From positions 20,336,001 to 20,400,000 of the forward strand of contig OZ024759.1 of NCBI GenBank assembly GCA_964016885.1: a stretch of 64,000 nucleotides of DNA. The letters are read 5' to 3'. The stretch comes from Eledone cirrhosa (Eukaryota). Positions 9,226 through 62,348 of the stretch are shown here, in pieces (within the stretch, counting starts at the first letter, position 1; every line of letters starts with the position of its first letter). Made by a program: the position numbers and the translations under genes. The notes beneath the pieces were generated by a model. The model saw only the letters and a program-made list of their open reading frames with translations, was not told the DNA's origin and searched no databases.

Positions 9226-10022
9226 GACTGTGTTTGTGTGTGATATAATACTACATTTATCATATGATCTCTGTTTCATTTTAAGACTTGTCTTACTTGC
9301 TTGTCAGTCTGTCTTTCCAACTCTGTCAACAACAACAACAACACCAACAATAGCACCAACAAAAACAAGAATGCCATCAACACCATCACCACCAGTTAAC
9401 CTGCACAAACAATAACATTCCACACTGCAACTTCAACCAAACAACACCACTTCCCCCGTACACTAACACAAATGCACACTACCCCAACCACCACACCCCA
9501 ACCAGTAGCAGTCATCACCACTAATACATTCACCACCATAACATAAATAACACCTCCACCTCCTCCACTACTATATCACAACTTTCCTATATTATATATC
9601 AAGTTAAGATAAGACAGACAGTCCCACCCAAATAAATACTATATATATCTATATATACAAAAAATGGTTAGCTGAACACACATTTTTTTCTTGATCTCCC
9701 TTTTCTCATTCTAATCAATCTTTCTCTTCTTTTATCTCCTGATGAAGGATTAATGTTTGAAACTCTAAAATTTTAAGACTCTTTGACTCTTGTATCATGG
9801 ATCAAACTAATATTATCATTTTGCTGTTTTTTTTCCATTTAGTTTTCACATATACACATACACACAAGCAGACACATATCCGTATGTAGTTGATGGCATG
9901 GAAAGATGGATGTTTAACAATGATGACTACTAAGCCACGCACCTTCATGTATATATGTAGACCCACCCAACCCTTGCTAGCAGGGAAAGCGAACATTAAA
10001 TGATGATATATATATATTTATA

Positions 10023-10161
10023 AATACATACATATATATATATAACGAAGGTGCAGTGAGGAACCAGATGGACCATAACACACCAGAGTACTTAATACTT
10101 AGTCCAGAAATAGCCGTCAAAACGGCTTGAGCTCTGCTGTCGGGGTCAAACATTTTTCCTA
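10023..10161. mobile_element. Deleted copy of Penelope-like hairpin element family H2
   Basis: Shares AACGAAGG..GAACCAG.TGGACCATAAC.CACCAGAGTACT and TAGCCGTC.AAACGGCTTGAGCTC.GC.GTCGGGGTC with 11124-11332 and 62151-62348; (TA)n flanks. Confidence 0.7.
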
Positions 10162-10174
10162 TATATATATGTAA

Positions 10175-11092: not shown

Positions 11093-11123
<31 letters not shown>

Positions 11124-11125
<2 letters not shown>

Positions 11126-11327
11126 ACGAAGGAAATGTGGTAATGAACCAGGTGGACCATAACGCACCAAAGTACTCAATACTTGGGGTAGTAGAGTGGG
11201 TAATAGGAACCAGTAAGACCCCGACGGCTGAGCTCAAGCCGTTTCGACGGCTAATTCTGGACTAAAATTTTAGTCCAGAATTAGCCGTCGAAACGGCTTG
11301 AGCTCAGCCGTCGGGGTCTTACTGGTT

Positions 11328-11332
<5 letters not shown>
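11124..11332. mobile_element. Penelope-like element H2 with a perfect 130-bp palindrome (11203-11332) containing a hammerhead 3' half
   Basis: Arms 11203-11267 and 11268-11332 are exact reverse complements; each contains GAAA-CGGCT-TGAGCTC-AGCCG-TC (stem III plus GUC site); (TA)n flanks. Confidence 0.75.
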
Positions 11333-11368
<36 letters not shown>

Positions 11369-11380
11369 TTAATATAGATG

Positions 11381-11431
11381 AGATTCTACAGGACTAGAAC
11401 TGTTTCATTCTTTAGAAATCATCAGGAATCT
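11381..11431 (-). ncRNA. Type I hammerhead ribozyme motif (family H1) in a Penelope-like pLTR fragment (11365-11730)
   Basis: Minus strand: AGATTC-CTGATGA-TTTCTAAAGAAT-GAAA-CAG TTCTAGTC CTG-TA-GAATCT; stems I and III pair, GUA site. Confidence 0.75.
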
Positions 11432-11452
11432 GGGTATCAAAAAATAAGTACG

Positions 11453-11515
11453 GTATTTATAGGTCTCTTCAGGTGGTAGGAGAGGGTGGGGAGTGGGATG
11501 GGTGTAGGTCATTGG
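11453..11515 (-). promoter_or_regulatory. Putative pLTR promoter: CCAAT plus TATAAATA upstream of the hammerhead
   Basis: Minus strand CCAAT (11511-11515) and CTATAAATAC (11453-11462), about 22 nt upstream of the HHR. Confidence 0.4.
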
Positions 11516-13728: not shown

Positions 13729-14339
13729 ATGGTGGCTGCCAACTCGTTTTCGAGTACGGCCACTACTTTATATCCATGTAGGAGAACCCCTACCGATGCG
13801 CTGAACGAGTGTGACTTTTTAGTCCAGCCAGCGACTTGAAAACTCTGGTACAAACACTACACTTGTGACAATTATTGACATATAGTGCTGGGCCCATGGT
13901 ACCATGTGACGACAAGTGCAGAGAGATCTCCAGATATAAAGCAATGCCTGTGCCGTGAAGCTTTTATAGTGAGCAAAGGCCCTGCACAAAGCCAGTCCCA
14001 CTCTCTTAACCAAGATGATATTTACCAAAAAGAAGAACAAGTCAACATCATTGGATACCATCAGTGTTGCTGGTGTTATATCAGAGTTTTCCTTCTCCTA
14101 GAATTCTGCCTTGACAAAGGCTAAGGGGTCATCTCTCCCAGTGATTTTGGATGGCCATTGACTCTTAAGAGCTCCTTTGCCCTTTGACAGGTTTTGTTTT
14201 TAGTCCTGCAGGATGTCCAAAGTCACCCTCCTCACCAAGAAACCTTGGTGGGGTTGCCAGTTTAGTCGCCAACGACCCGACCATGGGACAGGTTGTACTG
14301 GGATACATGTTGCCAGTAGCACCAACTAGTGACCTGACA
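13729..14339 (-). mobile_element. ~610-bp non-autonomous retroposon-like repeat (family R) ending in (AT)n
   Basis: Near-identical copy at 61042-61652, truncated copy at 42760-43214; contains CTAGGAGAAGGAAAACTCTGA, recalled as RTE 5'-UTR-like; no TIRs. Confidence 0.8.
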
Positions 14340-15192: not shown

Positions 15193-15674
15193 TATTCTAT
15201 ATAAAGTAATTTCTATAAAAAATAAAAATGCCTATACTCTACCAATGTATTGAGTACATTTTATATATATATTTGAGTATACTCTAAATGAAGTTGGAGT
15301 TTGGAAGGGCATTCAGCTATAGAAACCAAGTGAAAATCAGTTTGTATGTGCAAGACATAGTCACCTGACCTGGCATTGCTCACAACAGGATAATTCGTCT
15401 AACCCATGCTAGCATGAAAAAATGGATGTTAAATGGCGTTGATGATGAGGATACAGTAACCAATAAAACAAAGTAAAACAACTGCAGCCATATATGAGAT
15501 TTTAAGGGCCACTGTAGCACTAGCCAATAACCCAAACTGTCCCTTGATCTTATAAGATGCAGGGTGAATATCTGGGACATTTTTTGAAGAAAAGAAGTGT
15601 CTTTTAAGCTGTCAGATATGGTATATTCTCCAGTCATGAGAATTTCGAAAGCACACAATTTAAAGATGTGTTGA

Positions 15675-17491: not shown

Positions 17492-18009
17492 GTTAGGCTG
17501 CTCTTCAGCACTACTAGTAACATGTAATCTAGTACAATCTGTGCATCGTTGGGTCATTAGCGACTAAACCGGCAACCCCACCAAGCTTGCTTGTTGAAGG
17601 GGGTGATTTTGGACACCCTGTGGGATGAAAAAAAAATATCTGTCAGGAGAGTAATCATCCATCCCCCAATATTTTTTTTCTGGAGCGAGAGACTCCTAGT
17701 CTTCATTAAGACATCTCTCTAGAAGAGGGTCTTTCTGGTATAAAACCTGCCACTTTGTTTGCATCCAATGATGTAGACCAGTTCTTCTTTATGGGTAAAT
17801 GCATTCAATGTTCAGAGAGTGAGATTGGCCCCGTGCAAAGCTTTTCTTCACTTAAAAAAGCTTCTAACATGGCATTGCTTGATGTGACATTTTTTGCTAT
17901 GCATGGCTTGCTAACTATAGGCAAGACCCCAGTATGACCCCAAAAGAGCCAAGTCAGTGATGCTCATGCTTAAGTATCAAATGAAGGCATTACCTGAAAT
18001 CAAAATGCA

Positions 18010-24472: not shown

Positions 24473-25083
24473 ATGTATCTATCTGTATGTATATGTACAT
24501 ACACATGTACATATGTATAGGTTATGTATCTATCTATCTCTCTCTATATACACACACATACATGTATACACACACATACATGTATACACACACACACGCT
24601 TTTTCCTGGTAACAATATACACCCCCACACATAAGGCAAGTTCGAAATTGTTTGGCTGATGAGATTTTATAAGACTGAAACATAATCATGGCAGTCACTG
24701 TGCTTGCTTGTGAACGAACTTATTTTCCTATAAGCATGAGCATTAATAATTTTGTCTTTCTCTCACTCTCTCTCTCTCTCTCTCTCTCCCTCTCTCTCTC
24801 TTTCTGTCTCTCTCTGTCTGCCCCCCCCTCTCTCTGTGAAAATTAAACGGAGAAAACACAAGCAGATGAAGTACAGTGAAAACATATATATTAGCTTATG
24901 GTTAATTGTCACCTGCTGTGTAGTTAGTTACTATGGTGATATCTATCTGTCTGTCTCACTGTATTTCTCTCTCAACATTACATATGGGAAACATAGTTTT
25001 GATTTATGAACATTTCGGGTGACAAACTGACTTGAGGAACAAATGAAGTTTGTGAACCGAGGTTCCATGGTATCAATCATCAG

Positions 25084-25847: not shown

Positions 25848-25851
<4 letters not shown>

Positions 25852-26046
25852 TTAATATAGAAGAGATTCTACAGGACTAGAACTGTTTCATTCATTAGAA
25901 ATCATCAGGAATCAGATTCCTGATGATTTCTAATGAATGAAACAGTTCTAGTCCTGTAGAATCTCTTCTATATTAAAACTGTTATACTCTGCTATGTATT
26001 GAGTACCTTACTTACTGTGGTTACCTCCGATTCAACCCGGAATAAC

Positions 26047-26048
<2 letters not shown>
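25848..26048. mobile_element. Penelope-like element H1 with a perfect 133-bp palindrome (25848-25980)
   Basis: Arms 25848-25913 and 25915-25980 are exact reverse complements around one A; unique tail to 26048; (TA)n on both sides. Confidence 0.8.
25914..25964 (+). ncRNA. Type I hammerhead ribozyme motif (family H1); mirror copy on minus strand at 25865-25913
   Basis: AGATTC-CTGATGA-TTTCTAATGAAT-GAAA-CAG TTCTAGTC CTG-TA-GAATCT. Confidence 0.78.
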
Positions 26049-35461: not shown

Positions 35462-35616
35462 GAAGGTGCACGGCTTAGTGGTTAGAGCATTGGGCTTGCA
35501 ATCGAAAGGTTGTGAGTTCAATTCTCAGACCGGGTGATCTGTTGTTTCCTTGAGCAAGACACTTTATTTCACATTGCTCCAGTTTACTCAGCTGTAGAAA
35601 TGAGATGATAGGGACT
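35462..35616 (+). mobile_element. CORE-type SINE head flanked by Meta-like SINE fragments (35350-35443 +, 35625-35696 -)
   Basis: GGCTTAGTGGTTAG...GAGTTCAATTC...CCTTGAGCAAGACACTTTATTTCACATTGCTCCAG. Confidence 0.8.
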
Positions 35617-42759: not shown

Positions 42760-42763
<4 letters not shown>

Positions 42764-43214
42764 TGGCTGCCAACTCGTTTTCGAGTACGGCCACTACTTT
42801 ATATCCATGTAGGAGAACCCCTACCGATGCGCTGAACGAGTGTGACTTTTGAGTCCAGCGAGCGACTTGATAACTCTGGTACAAACACTACACTTGTGAC
42901 AATTATTGACACATAGTGCTGGGCCCATGGTACCATGTGACAAGTGCAGAGAGATCTCCAGATATAAAGCAATGCCTGTGCCATGAAGCTTTTATAGTGA
43001 GCAAAGGCATTGCACAGAGCCAGTCCCACTCTCTTAACCAAGATGATATTTACCAAAAAGTAGAACAAGTCAACATCATTGGATACCATCAGGGTTGCAG
43101 GTGTTATATCAGAGTTTTCCTTCTCCTAGAATTCTGCCTTGACAAAGGCTAAGGGGTCATCTCTCCCGGTGATTTTGGATGGCCATTGACTCTTAAGAGC
43201 TCCTTTGCCCTTTG
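42760..43214 (-). mobile_element. Truncated copy of family R
   Basis: Near-identical to 13729-14186; abuts (TA)n. Confidence 0.8.
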
Positions 43215-44487: not shown

Positions 44488-45409
44488 TATAACATTATTA
44501 ATTAATACTATCGTGCGATGCCTGTGCATGAAGATTTCATTTTAAAGTGAGGAAAGACTGTGCACTGAGCCAATCCCACTCTCTGAGCGACAGTAGCTAT
44601 AACCCGAAAAGAAGAAAAGATCAACATCATCGGTAACTACTGAGACGCAGTTTTTATATTGGAGTTATCCCAGTTTCCTTCTCCTTGAAGAATGCCCTGA
44701 CAAGGAATAGGGGCCTTCACTCCCAGGGGTTTAAACCATGATCGGGTATCCAGCCCAATTATTTCTATGTCCTCGCGCATATACATACACATGTATACAC
44801 ATATATACACATATTTTGGATGGCCGTTGACTCTTATGAGTTCTTCTGCCCTATACACACATATACACACGCACGCATACATACATACATACATACATAC
44901 ATAGCACAGAATAGAGTTGGAGTGACAAGATCCCAGACCACATTCATTTGCTGAGTGGAGGTGCAACTCATTAAATCAGATCAGGGAAATAATGTTTCCA
45001 TTGATCTTTCCATTGCTGATACTATCTGCTGTGGCTTAGTGATAATATTGGTACCTTCTTCAGTAAACCACAATTCTACTGAACCAGCTAATATATATAT
45101 ATATATATATTAATATTTTAATAAATATTTGCTCTACGGTTCTTATATATTTGATATATATTTTCCTTATCGAGCCCTCTTTGGATTTTAGTCTTCAATT
45201 TTATTATTATTACTATATATATATATATATATTTGGCAAAGTTAAAAATATAACTTCTATTTGTATGTAGAACACTTTATATGAGAGTATGTGATTGTCA
45301 AATAGTTTTGATACAATTGTAAAGCATTAAATGAGATAAGATCTCTTTGATATTATTCTCTTTGTGTGTGTGTGTGTGTATATATATATAGAGGAAAATG
45401 AGAAGTTGT

Positions 45410-47246: not shown

Positions 47247-47522
47247 AGACATGAAGAGCTAACTGGCAACAGATATCTTGACTGGTCCAACTGAATGTTC
47301 AATGCATCTGTGTATCCATCAGCAGCTTGCCAGTGGGGTTCACCAGAGTTGACTGCTGAACATATATACTAAATCAATGCCTAGATTTTATATGTTCAGC
47401 AGTCAACTCTGGTGAACCCCACTGGCAAGCTGCTGATGGATACAGCCCCCAATTGTACACAGATGCATTGAACATTCAGTTGGACCAGTTGAGATATGTT
47501 GCCAGCTCGCTCTCCATGTCTG
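47247..47522. repeat. Long complex-sequence inverted repeat (~120/134-bp arms, ~20-nt loop)
   Basis: 47247-47368 versus 47389-47522; inner ~55 bp identical, one 15-bp indel. Confidence 0.9.
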
Positions 47523-51500: not shown

Positions 51501-51698
51501 TCATCATCATCATCATCATCATTTCATTTTACGTCCACTTTTCCCTGCTTGCAAGGGTGGGACGGGAACTGATTCTGGCTTGATTTCTACAGCTGGATGC
51601 CCTTCCTAACACCAACCTCATTTACAGTGAGTGGTGGGTGCTTTTTTGCCGTGGCACCTCCACGACCACTTTGCAGTGGTCGTGGAGGTGCCACGGCA
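51501..51698 (-). mobile_element. 5'-truncated (GAT)n SINE ending in a perfect 24-bp fold-back
   Basis: Arms 51647-51670 and 51675-51698. Confidence 0.8.
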
Positions 51699-56707: not shown

Positions 56708-56964
56708 TTGTGTATACATATATACACATAAATGTATGAGCATGTATATACATGTGTGTTAGTATTTATGTATGTGTGTATGTATCTATGTGTGTGTGTG
56801 TGTATGAATGCGTGTGTATATGTGTGTGTATATATATGTATGTCTGTATATGTGTGTGCATATATATATATATAAATACCTTCCTTAGACCTCCACTATT
56901 CACTTCCTCCATCCCCACCCCATCTTGCATATCCAGCAACTCTTGCCTCTAGAGAGAATGAGAC

Positions 56965-57812
56965 AACAAAAGCACCAAGTCCACTCTGTATAATATGCTA
57001 GTCCCATTACCAAAAAGCACCCAGCCCACCCTGTACATCAATTATGCTAGTGCCATTACCAAAAAGCACCTAGTCTACCCTGTACATCAGTTATGCTAGT
57101 GCCATTACCAAAAAGCACCCAGTCCACCCTGTATATCAGTCATGATAGTGCCATTACCAAAAAGCACCCAGTCCACCCTGTACATCAATTATGCTAGTGC
57201 CATTACCAAAAAGCATCCAGTCCACTCTGTATATCAGTCATGATAGTGCCATTACCAAAAAGCACCTAGTCTACCCTGTATATCAGTTATGCTAGTGCCA
57301 TTACCAAAAAGCACCCAGTCCACCCTGTATATCAGTTATGCTAGTGCCATTACCAAAAAGCACCTAGTCTACCCTGTATATCAGTTATGCTAGTGCCATT
57401 ACCAAAAAGCACCTAGTCTACCCTGTATATCAGTTATGCTAGTGCCATTACCAAAAAGCACCCAGTCCACCCTGTATATCAGTTATGCTAGTGCCATTAC
57501 CAAAAAGTACCCAGTCCACCCTGTATATCAGTCATGCTAGGGCCATTACCAAAAAGCACCCAGTCCACCCTGTATATCAGTCACGATAGTGCCATTACCA
57601 AAAAGTACCCAGTCCACCCTGAATGGCCATCATGCTGGTACCATTATAAAAGAAAAGGCTCCCAGTTCATGATGTAATGTGATTGACATTACGAGGGGCA
57701 TCCAGCCATGGAAAGCAAAGCCTGCTGATCTGATCTGGCCTGGCTAGCCGCATAATCTGACAACCTGTCTAACTTACGCAAGCATGGGTAAATAGATGTT
57801 AAATGGTGATGT
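56965..57812 (+). repeat. 49-bp minisatellite (~13 copies, 56997-57621) expanded inside a SINE 3' region
   Basis: Unit GCTAGTGCCATTACCAAAAAGCACCCAGTCCACCCTGTATATCAGTTAT; followed by the GGGCATCCAGCC...AGATGTTAAATGGTGATG SINE tail. Confidence 0.9.
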
Positions 57813-61041: not shown

Positions 61042-61652
61042 ATGGTGGCTGCCAACTCATTTTCGAGTACGGCCACTACTTTATATCCATGTAGGAGAAC
61101 CCCTACCGATGCGCTGAACGAGTGTGACTTTTTAGTCCAGCCAGCGACTTGAAAACTCTGGTACAAACACTACACTTGTGACAATTATTGACATATAGTG
61201 CTGGGCCCATGGTACCATGTGATGACAAGTGCAGAGAGATCTCCAGATATAAAGCAATGCCTGTGCCGTGAAGCTTTTATAGTGAGCAAAGGCACTGCAC
61301 AAAGCCAGTCCCACTCTCTTAACCAAGATGATATTTACCAAAAAGAAGAACAAGTCAACATCATTGGATACCATCAGGGTTGTAGGTGTTATATCAGAGT
61401 TTTCCTTCTCCTAGAATTCTGCCTTGACAAAGGCTAAGGGGTCATATCTCCCGGTGATTTTGGATGGCCATTGACTCTTAAGAGCTCCCTTGCCCTTTGA
61501 CAGGTTTTGTTTTTAGTCCTGCAGGATGTCCAAAGTCACCCTCCTCACCAAGAAACCTTGGTGGGGTTGCCAGTTTAGTCGCCAACGACCCGACCATGAG
61601 ACAGGTTGTACTGGGATACATGTTACCAGTAGCACCAACTGGTGACCTGACA
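61042..61652 (-). mobile_element. Full copy of family R
   Basis: Near-identical to 13729-14339. Confidence 0.85.
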
Positions 61653-61929: not shown

Positions 61930-61974
61930 AGTCACTGAAGAGGTCACAGAGTGTGTGACGAAAGAACTATGACT
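61930..61974 (+). ncRNA. Minimal type I hammerhead motif (family H5)
   Basis: AGTCA-CTGAAGA-G-GTCAC AGAGTGT GTGAC-GAAA-GAAC-TA-TGACT; stems I and II pair; one extra G; very short stem III. Confidence 0.65.
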
Positions 61975-62150: not shown

Positions 62151-62348
62151 AACGAAGGAAGTGTGGTAAGGAACCAGGTGGGCCATAACACACCAGAGTA
62201 CTCGATACTTTGGGTAGCAGAGTGGGTAATAGGAAAAGGTTCAGGACCCCGATGGTAGAGCTGAAGCTGTTTCGATAGCTATTTCTTTCCAGAAATAGCC
62301 ACCGAAACGGCTTGAGCTCTGCCGTCGGGGTCCTGAACCTTTTCCTAT
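62151..62348. mobile_element. Penelope-like hairpin element H2 (imperfect inverted repeat 62229-62348)
   Basis: Homologous to 11124-11332; (TA)n flanks. Confidence 0.75.

Follow-up and report, generated by a model that had tools for sequence, protein, structure and literature searches.

Genomic insertions of Penelope-like elements (PLEs) have been described in which a 5'-truncated copy lies in inverted orientation beside its partner, a tail is carried at one end only, and a microsatellite serves as the target (PMC8557442; PMC3846280). Palindromes have been recorded at the inverted junctions (PMC3846280), and the origin of both the inverted partners and the one-sided tails is stated to be open in the accounts drawn on here (PMC8557442; PMC11167929). 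Elements of the Hydra clade target (TA)n, and in the study concerned they always carried a hammerhead motif (PMC8557442). In EN+ PLEs a single ORF encodes the RT and a GIY-YIG endonuclease, and Hydra proteins are marked by RWK, DKT and CxCX5C motifs and lack CCHH. A PLE protein of the anole cleaves AT-rich DNA on both strands and extends each of them, and the corresponding cDNA starts at two sites on the RNA that bound the tail (PMC11167929). Penelope-like sequences have been estimated to occupy 6.83% of the O. vulgaris genome (PMC13282606).

We characterize here a palindrome (copy A, Table 1) within a 64,000-nt stretch of DNA, hereafter the window, and propose with fair confidence that it is a short head-to-head insertion into (TA)n, the dead stub of a 5'-truncated PLE, probably of the Hydra clade and likely composed of two joined cDNAs. 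The insertion pattern as such is already known, and copy A is mostly an ordinary example of it, routine PLE debris; the published layout had been overlooked in the first-pass annotation of this DNA. The window is AT-rich and of animal type, with simple repeats making up 41% by TRF masking and an unmasked part of 37.6 kb; interspersed repeats are numerous, the SINE motifs look octopus-like, and an informative long ORF is absent among the 153 listed.

The arms of copy A match exactly over 65 of 65 bp, with no spacer and a centre at 11267/11268, in agreement with the perfect 130-bp palindrome first annotated. The interval then assigned to it (11124-11332) was too broad, however, in that 11203-11332 is palindromic and the first 79 nt (11124-11202) lie outside. 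Read outward from the centre, each arm presents in turn GAAA, helix III (5 bp, its loop holding GAGCTC), GTC and GGGGTC, so that the earlier description of GAAA-stem III-GUC with a self-complementary loop applies to both arms; the reported lack of CTGANGA also stands, this word occurring 27 times on the two strands of the window and nowhere in 11126-11332. Each arm contains five CpG, at an o/e of 1.19; the value for the unmasked window is 0.42. Since the arms are identical and all CpG are kept, we regard copy A as young, as had been proposed from its intact CpGs; arm-to-arm conversion could be another source of the likeness between its arms.

Table 1. Positions in the window of copy A and its parts, of the two other copies of the family, and of the sister family
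Feature	Position	Strand	Basis
(TA)n target, left side	11098..11125	.	sequence
77-nt 3' tail, on one arm only, ending in a TA run	11126..11202	-	window comparison and reads
Tail hairpin motif common to the full-hammerhead sister family	11172..11197	-	pattern and alignment
Left arm: 3' end of a 5'-truncated element, running on into the tail	11203..11267	-	palindrome search
Type I hammerhead 3' half (GAAA, helix III with GAGCTC loop, GUC, helix I 3' strand)	11217..11245	-	
Self-complementary centre A4T4, arm junction	11264..11271	.	palindrome and folding energy
Right arm: second 5'-truncated copy, tail-less, ending in TTCC, then TA	11268..11332	+	
Hammerhead 3' half, right arm	11290..11318	+	
(TA)n target, right side	11330..11365	.	
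Copy B: last 55 nt of tail (-) joined to tail-less body arm (+); non-palindromic inversion	10045..10162	.	
Copy C: tail and older, decayed head-to-head arms	62152..62348	.	
Sister family: head-to-head palindrome, complete CTGATGA...GAAAC hammerhead per arm, one arm with a 68-nt tail, (TA)n flanks	25849..26048	.	
Sister family, second copy, in the TA run shared with the right end of copy A	11366..11440	-	

Both further copies named in the first-pass annotation exist, with corrected bounds: copy C, placed at 62151-62348, begins at 62152, and copy B, placed at 10023-10161, occupies 10045-10162, the original start lying in a TA run. All six outer ends of the three copies abut (TA)n, and those of copies B and C are the same two as in copy A. 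Each copy has an adjacent inverted, 5'-truncated partner, and each (3/3) bears the tail on one arm only. The tail arm of copy B stops within the tail and has nothing in common with the body arm of that copy. The arms of copy C differ at 6 of 58 aligned positions (three of them CpG transitions by eye), and the additional bases at its centre are part of the tail-less arm. Within copy A, and likewise within copy C, the arms share letters in the segment that is most variable between subfamilies, which indicates that both arms of one insertion derive from one template. GAAA, helix III and the UH site are intact in three of the five body arms; copy B has lost the G of GAAA, and the left arm of copy C is decayed. 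A loosely defined half-hammerhead (GAAA, 4 bp, TH) has 49 matches in the 37.6 kb of unmasked window, and the three that take the GAAAC...GTC form are all arms of this family. The full CTGANGA is found in none of the three window copies, and because CUGANGA is absent from all of them, the genomic stubs are not ribozymes.

Four of ten listed public runs, X1, X4, X5 and X8, were matched to 11124-11282 of the reference at 80% likeness, X1, X4 and X5 consisting of contigs (X5 from a second organism) and X8 of raw reads from another individual, apparently a RAD library. Loose-end sequence is visible for 30 letters, and our figures for read variants and loose ends are those among the matches listed. 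The family was matched by 17,298 of 16.3 million contigs in X1, 481 of 762,587 in X4 and 8 of 6.9 million in X5, and by 24,147 of 12.5 million reads in X8; summed contig depth was left out as a measure of copy number. Ends joined to TA at 11203 occur in all four runs (96 X1 contigs, 3526 X8 reads), beside molecules that cross the tail, and the family has two 3' ends. Arms lie on opposite strands in 10 of the 11 listed read joints; one same-direction joint, with TA between, was seen in X8, and the window holds no pseudo-LTR or partial tandem. The listed variants spare GAAA, the U of GUC and GAGCTC, and four of the five within the tail hairpin are at unpaired bases. Sharp read ends in X8 at 11256 (7222), 11266 (820) and 11282 (47) all coincide with AATT words; these were not counted as evidence, because we take the coincidence to reflect restriction cuts. 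Scans of viral, metagenome and genome contig collections with family patterns returned no match.

Contigs and 49 reads cover 11274-11282, crossing the centre of copy A, and five X1 contigs have a centre two letters shorter, the product expected if two ends pair through the native AATT. Perfect spacerless palindromes are a known type of artefact, and no listed contig spans the copy A locus together with its flanks. An assembly or library artefact, such as a chimeric fold-back read, is nevertheless highly improbable: the arms of copy C have aged apart, the tail asymmetry recurs in a second family, inverted joints turn up both in contigs and among the raw reads from another individual, and the centre itself is covered as just described.

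Because an inverted 5'-truncated partner, a one-sided tail and a (TA)n target constitute the described PLE layout, we consider a PLE parent very probable. The stubs of the family contain no RT or endonuclease ORF. Insertion units of EN+ PLEs (PMC3846280; PMC8557442) resemble the present ones in their 5' truncation, in the inverted truncated neighbour with a palindromic junction, in the tail on one arm, in the microsatellite target with no discernible duplication, and in the hammerhead near the 3' end. They differ in that the tail is 77 nt here and 30-40 nt there, in that no ORF is left here, and in the position of the truncation, which lies inside the ribozyme here and upstream of it in the published units. 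Published PLE hammerheads (PMC4209133) share the type I order, the C before GAAA, a palindromic loop III and the occurrence of opposite-strand pairs from truncated PLEs; in that account, however, metazoan motifs are minimal, with a helix III of 0-2 bp, and large helices III belong to fungi and protists. Precedents for a long loop II are given there by PLE-X motifs of spike-moss.

Short, palindromic, TA-flanked sequences in high copy number also suggest a MITE or fold-back DNA transposon, and retrozymes, of which a non-LTR form might be considered, carry type I hammerheads (PMC7229834). We judge either origin very unlikely. Inverted repeats do not mark both termini, the repeat being internal on one side and lacking in copy B, and the junctions vary between copies, by which the MITE reading is already contradicted; the head-to-tail tandem unit of a retrozyme is found in none of the three copies, and a complete hammerhead in none.

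Within the PLEs, the Hydra clade is on balance favoured, because the tail hairpin is common to the sister family and to two of six Hydra consensi; the (TA)n target is not diagnostic, since Naiad and Neptune use (TA)n too. The published clade (PMC8557442) is similar in its (TA)n target and, in two of the six consensi by eye, in a TA-rich internal end followed by a like tail hairpin, and the sister family has a Hydra-type ACAG-TT-CT helix III. On the other side, there is no sequence match to Hydra-1_Obim or to the other five consensi, and in the published Hydra hammerheads helix II measures 3-7 bp, the loops are short and helix III has 3-4 bp (PMC8557442), whereas the present family has a helix II of about 50 nt and a helix III of 5 bp with a 7-nt palindromic loop. 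Two family words of 9-10 letters have no match among the consensi in the supplement of Craig (PMC8557442), in which line breaks could hide one, and the supplement of the O. vulgaris repeat paper (PMC13282606) contains no consensi and none of four family words. Neither the family, nor its long helix II, nor the shared tail hairpin was found in the open-access literature; the family may be an unclassified repeat in Repbase or Dfam.

The sister copy at 25849-26048 has 66-bp arms and a 1-nt spacer and is joined about 6 nt upstream of CTGATGA, whereas the junction of the present family lies inside helix II. From GAAA to the end, the alignment of the two families is equalled by 3-12 of 2000 shuffles; the tails taken alone are weakly alike (16-89 of 2000 global shuffles; 51, 407 and 495 of 5000 local ones). 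The tail hairpin pattern, which was built after the copies had been seen, has four matches in the window and none in 100 shuffles. By eye, Hydra-2_Amil and Hydra-2_Ajap also have the hairpin (CTC-TRC...GYA-TY-GAG) after a TA-rich internal end, the outer pair being changed from A-U to G-C; across the six Hydra consensi it is clear in two and partial in two, and the remaining two end before it. RNAalifold favoured another hairpin for the tail motif, on an alignment that was poor and misaligned. Three viral loci retrieved with the pattern lacked a core, had no BLAST similarity to the window copies and were dropped as chance matches. A decayed tail hairpin of the sister family is present at 15236-15257, and at 9739-9780, 24656-24690 and 61935-61965 CTGANGA and GAAA again stand as far apart as in a hammerhead (13, 14 and 18 nt), in what are probably PLE ends that have decayed.

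On copy A coordinates, the inner end lies at 11267 in copy A, near 11265 in copy B and near 11261 in copy C, and nine of ten inverted read joints have one end at 11253-11266. A recurring inner end had been proposed beforehand, and the whole set, 3/3 copies and 9/10 joints, indeed lies within 11253-11267. The other ends of the nine joints are at 11164, 11181, 11192, 11199, 11209 (four) and 11226; the tenth joint connects the two outer ends. Eight of the nine are non-palindromic, because their tail-side arm stops at or before 11209; Illumina reads may under-sample true palindromes, which would favour this class. A span as narrow as that of the nine joints arose in 0.06% of uniform-placement trials. 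The clustering is biased, in that the reference stops at the centre and no joint can be recorded for an arm that begins beyond it; for the three window copies alone, P was 0.059 with a narrow range and 0.001 with a 300-nt range. Among the matches listed, 81 X1 contigs at 11266 and 103 contigs of a variant at 11253 continue upstream, and because so many do, the inner end is a preferred and not an absolute stop.

The same loose ends give a view of the sequence beyond this point. Those listed at 11266 (81 X1, 7 X4 and 1 X5 contig) agree roughly in sequence and after about 22 letters reach a plus-strand word like AAATAGCC, an inverted match of the hairpin 3' strand; loose ends from three of the runs show about 9 nt of the helix II 5' strand. 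The loose end of the X5 contig has 95 letters that align nowhere else on the reference, and for that reason it is not itself a fold-back. From the inverted match we deduce that the family has a native hairpin, some 50 nt long, with GAAA at the end of its 3' strand, and that this hairpin, as predicted from sequence, occupies the position of hammerhead helix II. The clustered ends fall in its upper half and tip, in keeping with the original placement of the break within stem II just 5' of GAAA. Folded on their own, the arms are no more stable than shuffled sequences (z -0.84 to +0.42), and single-arm MFE folds are uninformative.

We lean slightly towards polymerase stalling as the cause of the clustering. 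Hairpins of this kind are nuclease substrates, and an RNA that ended at the hairpin would also bring the inner ends together within 15 nt; we hold this to be rather unlikely, given that many contigs continue past the point with common upstream sequence and that the ends are spread over those 15 nt and not confined to one base.

For the arms themselves, we find the joining of two cDNAs moderately probable. The endonuclease of the element would cut both strands of the TA run, and both DNA ends would prime reverse transcription, the distal start site giving the tailed arm and an internal start site, 77 nt upstream, the tail-less one. Each cDNA would run through helix I, the GUC site and helix III, past GAAA, and come to a stop in the upper half of the unusually long helix II (hairpin of about 50 nt), so that a half-ribozyme is what truncation would leave. 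The cDNA ends would then be joined, in copy A through the self-complementary AATT near the hairpin tip, to form a spacerless palindrome; an earlier stop of the distal cDNA would yield a non-palindromic inversion, as in copy B and most read joints. One tail per insertion, seen in 3/3 copies, would follow from such joining, as would the non-overlapping inversions (copy B and 8/9 read joints, of which four stop at 11209, beside the internal start), the centre bases owned by the tail-less arm in copy C, and the lack of a spacer, an end of copy A without a hairpin of its own pairing with its twin. A nascent strand ending at the centre of copy A has a computed hairpin energy of 0.0 kcal/mol, and pairing with a second such end gives -2.9 to -5.9 kcal/mol.

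In L1 twin priming, two primed cDNAs on one RNA produce an inverted 5' part with little overlap. The arrangement envisaged here has in common with it the two primed cDNAs and the inverted 5' part, and differs in that both start sites are fixed and the overlap can be complete, giving palindromes. Poseidon of the green anole (PMC11167929) is alike in its two 3' ends bounding a tail, its AT-rich target and the extension of both strands in vitro, and by analogy such extension would have head-to-head arms as its outcome; it belongs to another clade with other sequence, and cDNA joining and a stop at helix II do not form part of the paper's account as drawn on here.

The first-pass annotation had attributed the inversions to a single strand folding back, that is, to a cDNA of the same PLE stub that halts at the hairpin and then acts as its own primer and template. 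The identical arms of copy A, the sharing by the arms of copies A and C of the most variable segment, which points to one template, and the interpretation of junction palindromes as self-priming in another study (PMC3846280) all speak for this process; the shared letters, however, are equally explained by one RNA used twice. Fold-back cannot yield the non-overlapping arms of copy B or of 8/9 read joints, the loop bases of copy C belong to the tail-less arm, no intramolecular hairpin forms at the nascent end of copy A (0.0 kcal/mol), and a separate reason would be needed for exactly one tailed arm in 3/3 copies. We therefore regard fold-back as a doubtful general explanation and an unlikely one here, possible for copy A alone. 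In this family the short junctions are very numerous, both 3' ends are fixed and the inner ends cluster, so that counting alone could separate fold-back from the two-cDNA joining that we prefer.

We rather expect that full-length members possess an intact CUGANGA core upstream, which would sit just past the 5' strand of the long hairpin. An Rfam search of 11100-11500 gave no hammerhead match even at E 10, where only generic hairpin models appeared, far below gathering, and a degenerate core sought within the arm at the spacing of the sister family was not found. A type II arrangement, with the core downstream, was rejected, CTGAA-like letters following GGGGTC with no CUGANGA. Standard hammerhead descriptors allow a spacer of 7-17 nt (PMC8557442, methods); since these would miss them, families with a long helix II may be mis-scored as ribozyme-free.

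The parent may instead have been core-less, the GAAA, helix and palindromic loop then being a structural signal of a Naiad-like PLE and not half of a ribozyme. By eye, the 3' ends of Naiad_Obim and Naiad_Ovul do contain GTCGAAAC, along with a stem whose loop is the palindrome GATATC and a further, long stem upstream; they are not preceded by a canonical core, and Naiads use (TA)n targets and carry no canonical hammerheads in the published account (PMC8557442). This origin seems to us improbable: the 3' half in the present family is fully canonical (5/5 arms have C before GAAA, the closing pairs are C-G and A-U, and the site reads GUC), the Naiad motif is without a UH site, the tail hairpin ties the family to hammerhead-bearing ones, and cephalopod Naiads are described as long inactive (PMC8557442), whereas copy A is young. 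The 3' motif of the two Naiads is itself like a three-way junction, resembling a hammerhead without canonical core, and a similar word occurs at one Chlamys 3' end.

A more far-reaching view, which we offer tentatively, would make the family an abundant, recently active Hydra-clade PLE with an undescribed hammerhead whose 50-nt helix II acts as a fixed RT barrier; its thousands of junctions would record twin priming from two PLE start sites on one RNA, and the tail hairpin, which corals, sea cucumbers and the present host would all have kept, would be the recognition signal that determines the start sites. If copy A were transcribed, its perfect duplex of 65 bp would be a putative substrate for editing or small-RNA pathways.

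Several other repeats accompany these insertions in the window. At 51647-51698, the truncated end of a copy of the common CATCAT-tailed, SINE-like family, ending in TA, forms a 24-bp perfect fold-back with a 4-nt loop; PLE families are not the only ones with inversion at truncated ends. A nested imperfect palindrome of 271 bp (47249-47519; 81% over 292 aligned positions) occurs once in the window. The repeats at 13729-14336, 61042-61649, 42762-43212, 17511-17883 and 44515-44732 make up a young family of 608 bp, three copies beginning at the same base after (TA)n. The sole Rfam match in the window at gathering score is a tRNA-like SINE head (35472-35528), and a tandem array of a 49-bp unit, with about 91-94% identity, extends over 56847-57734.
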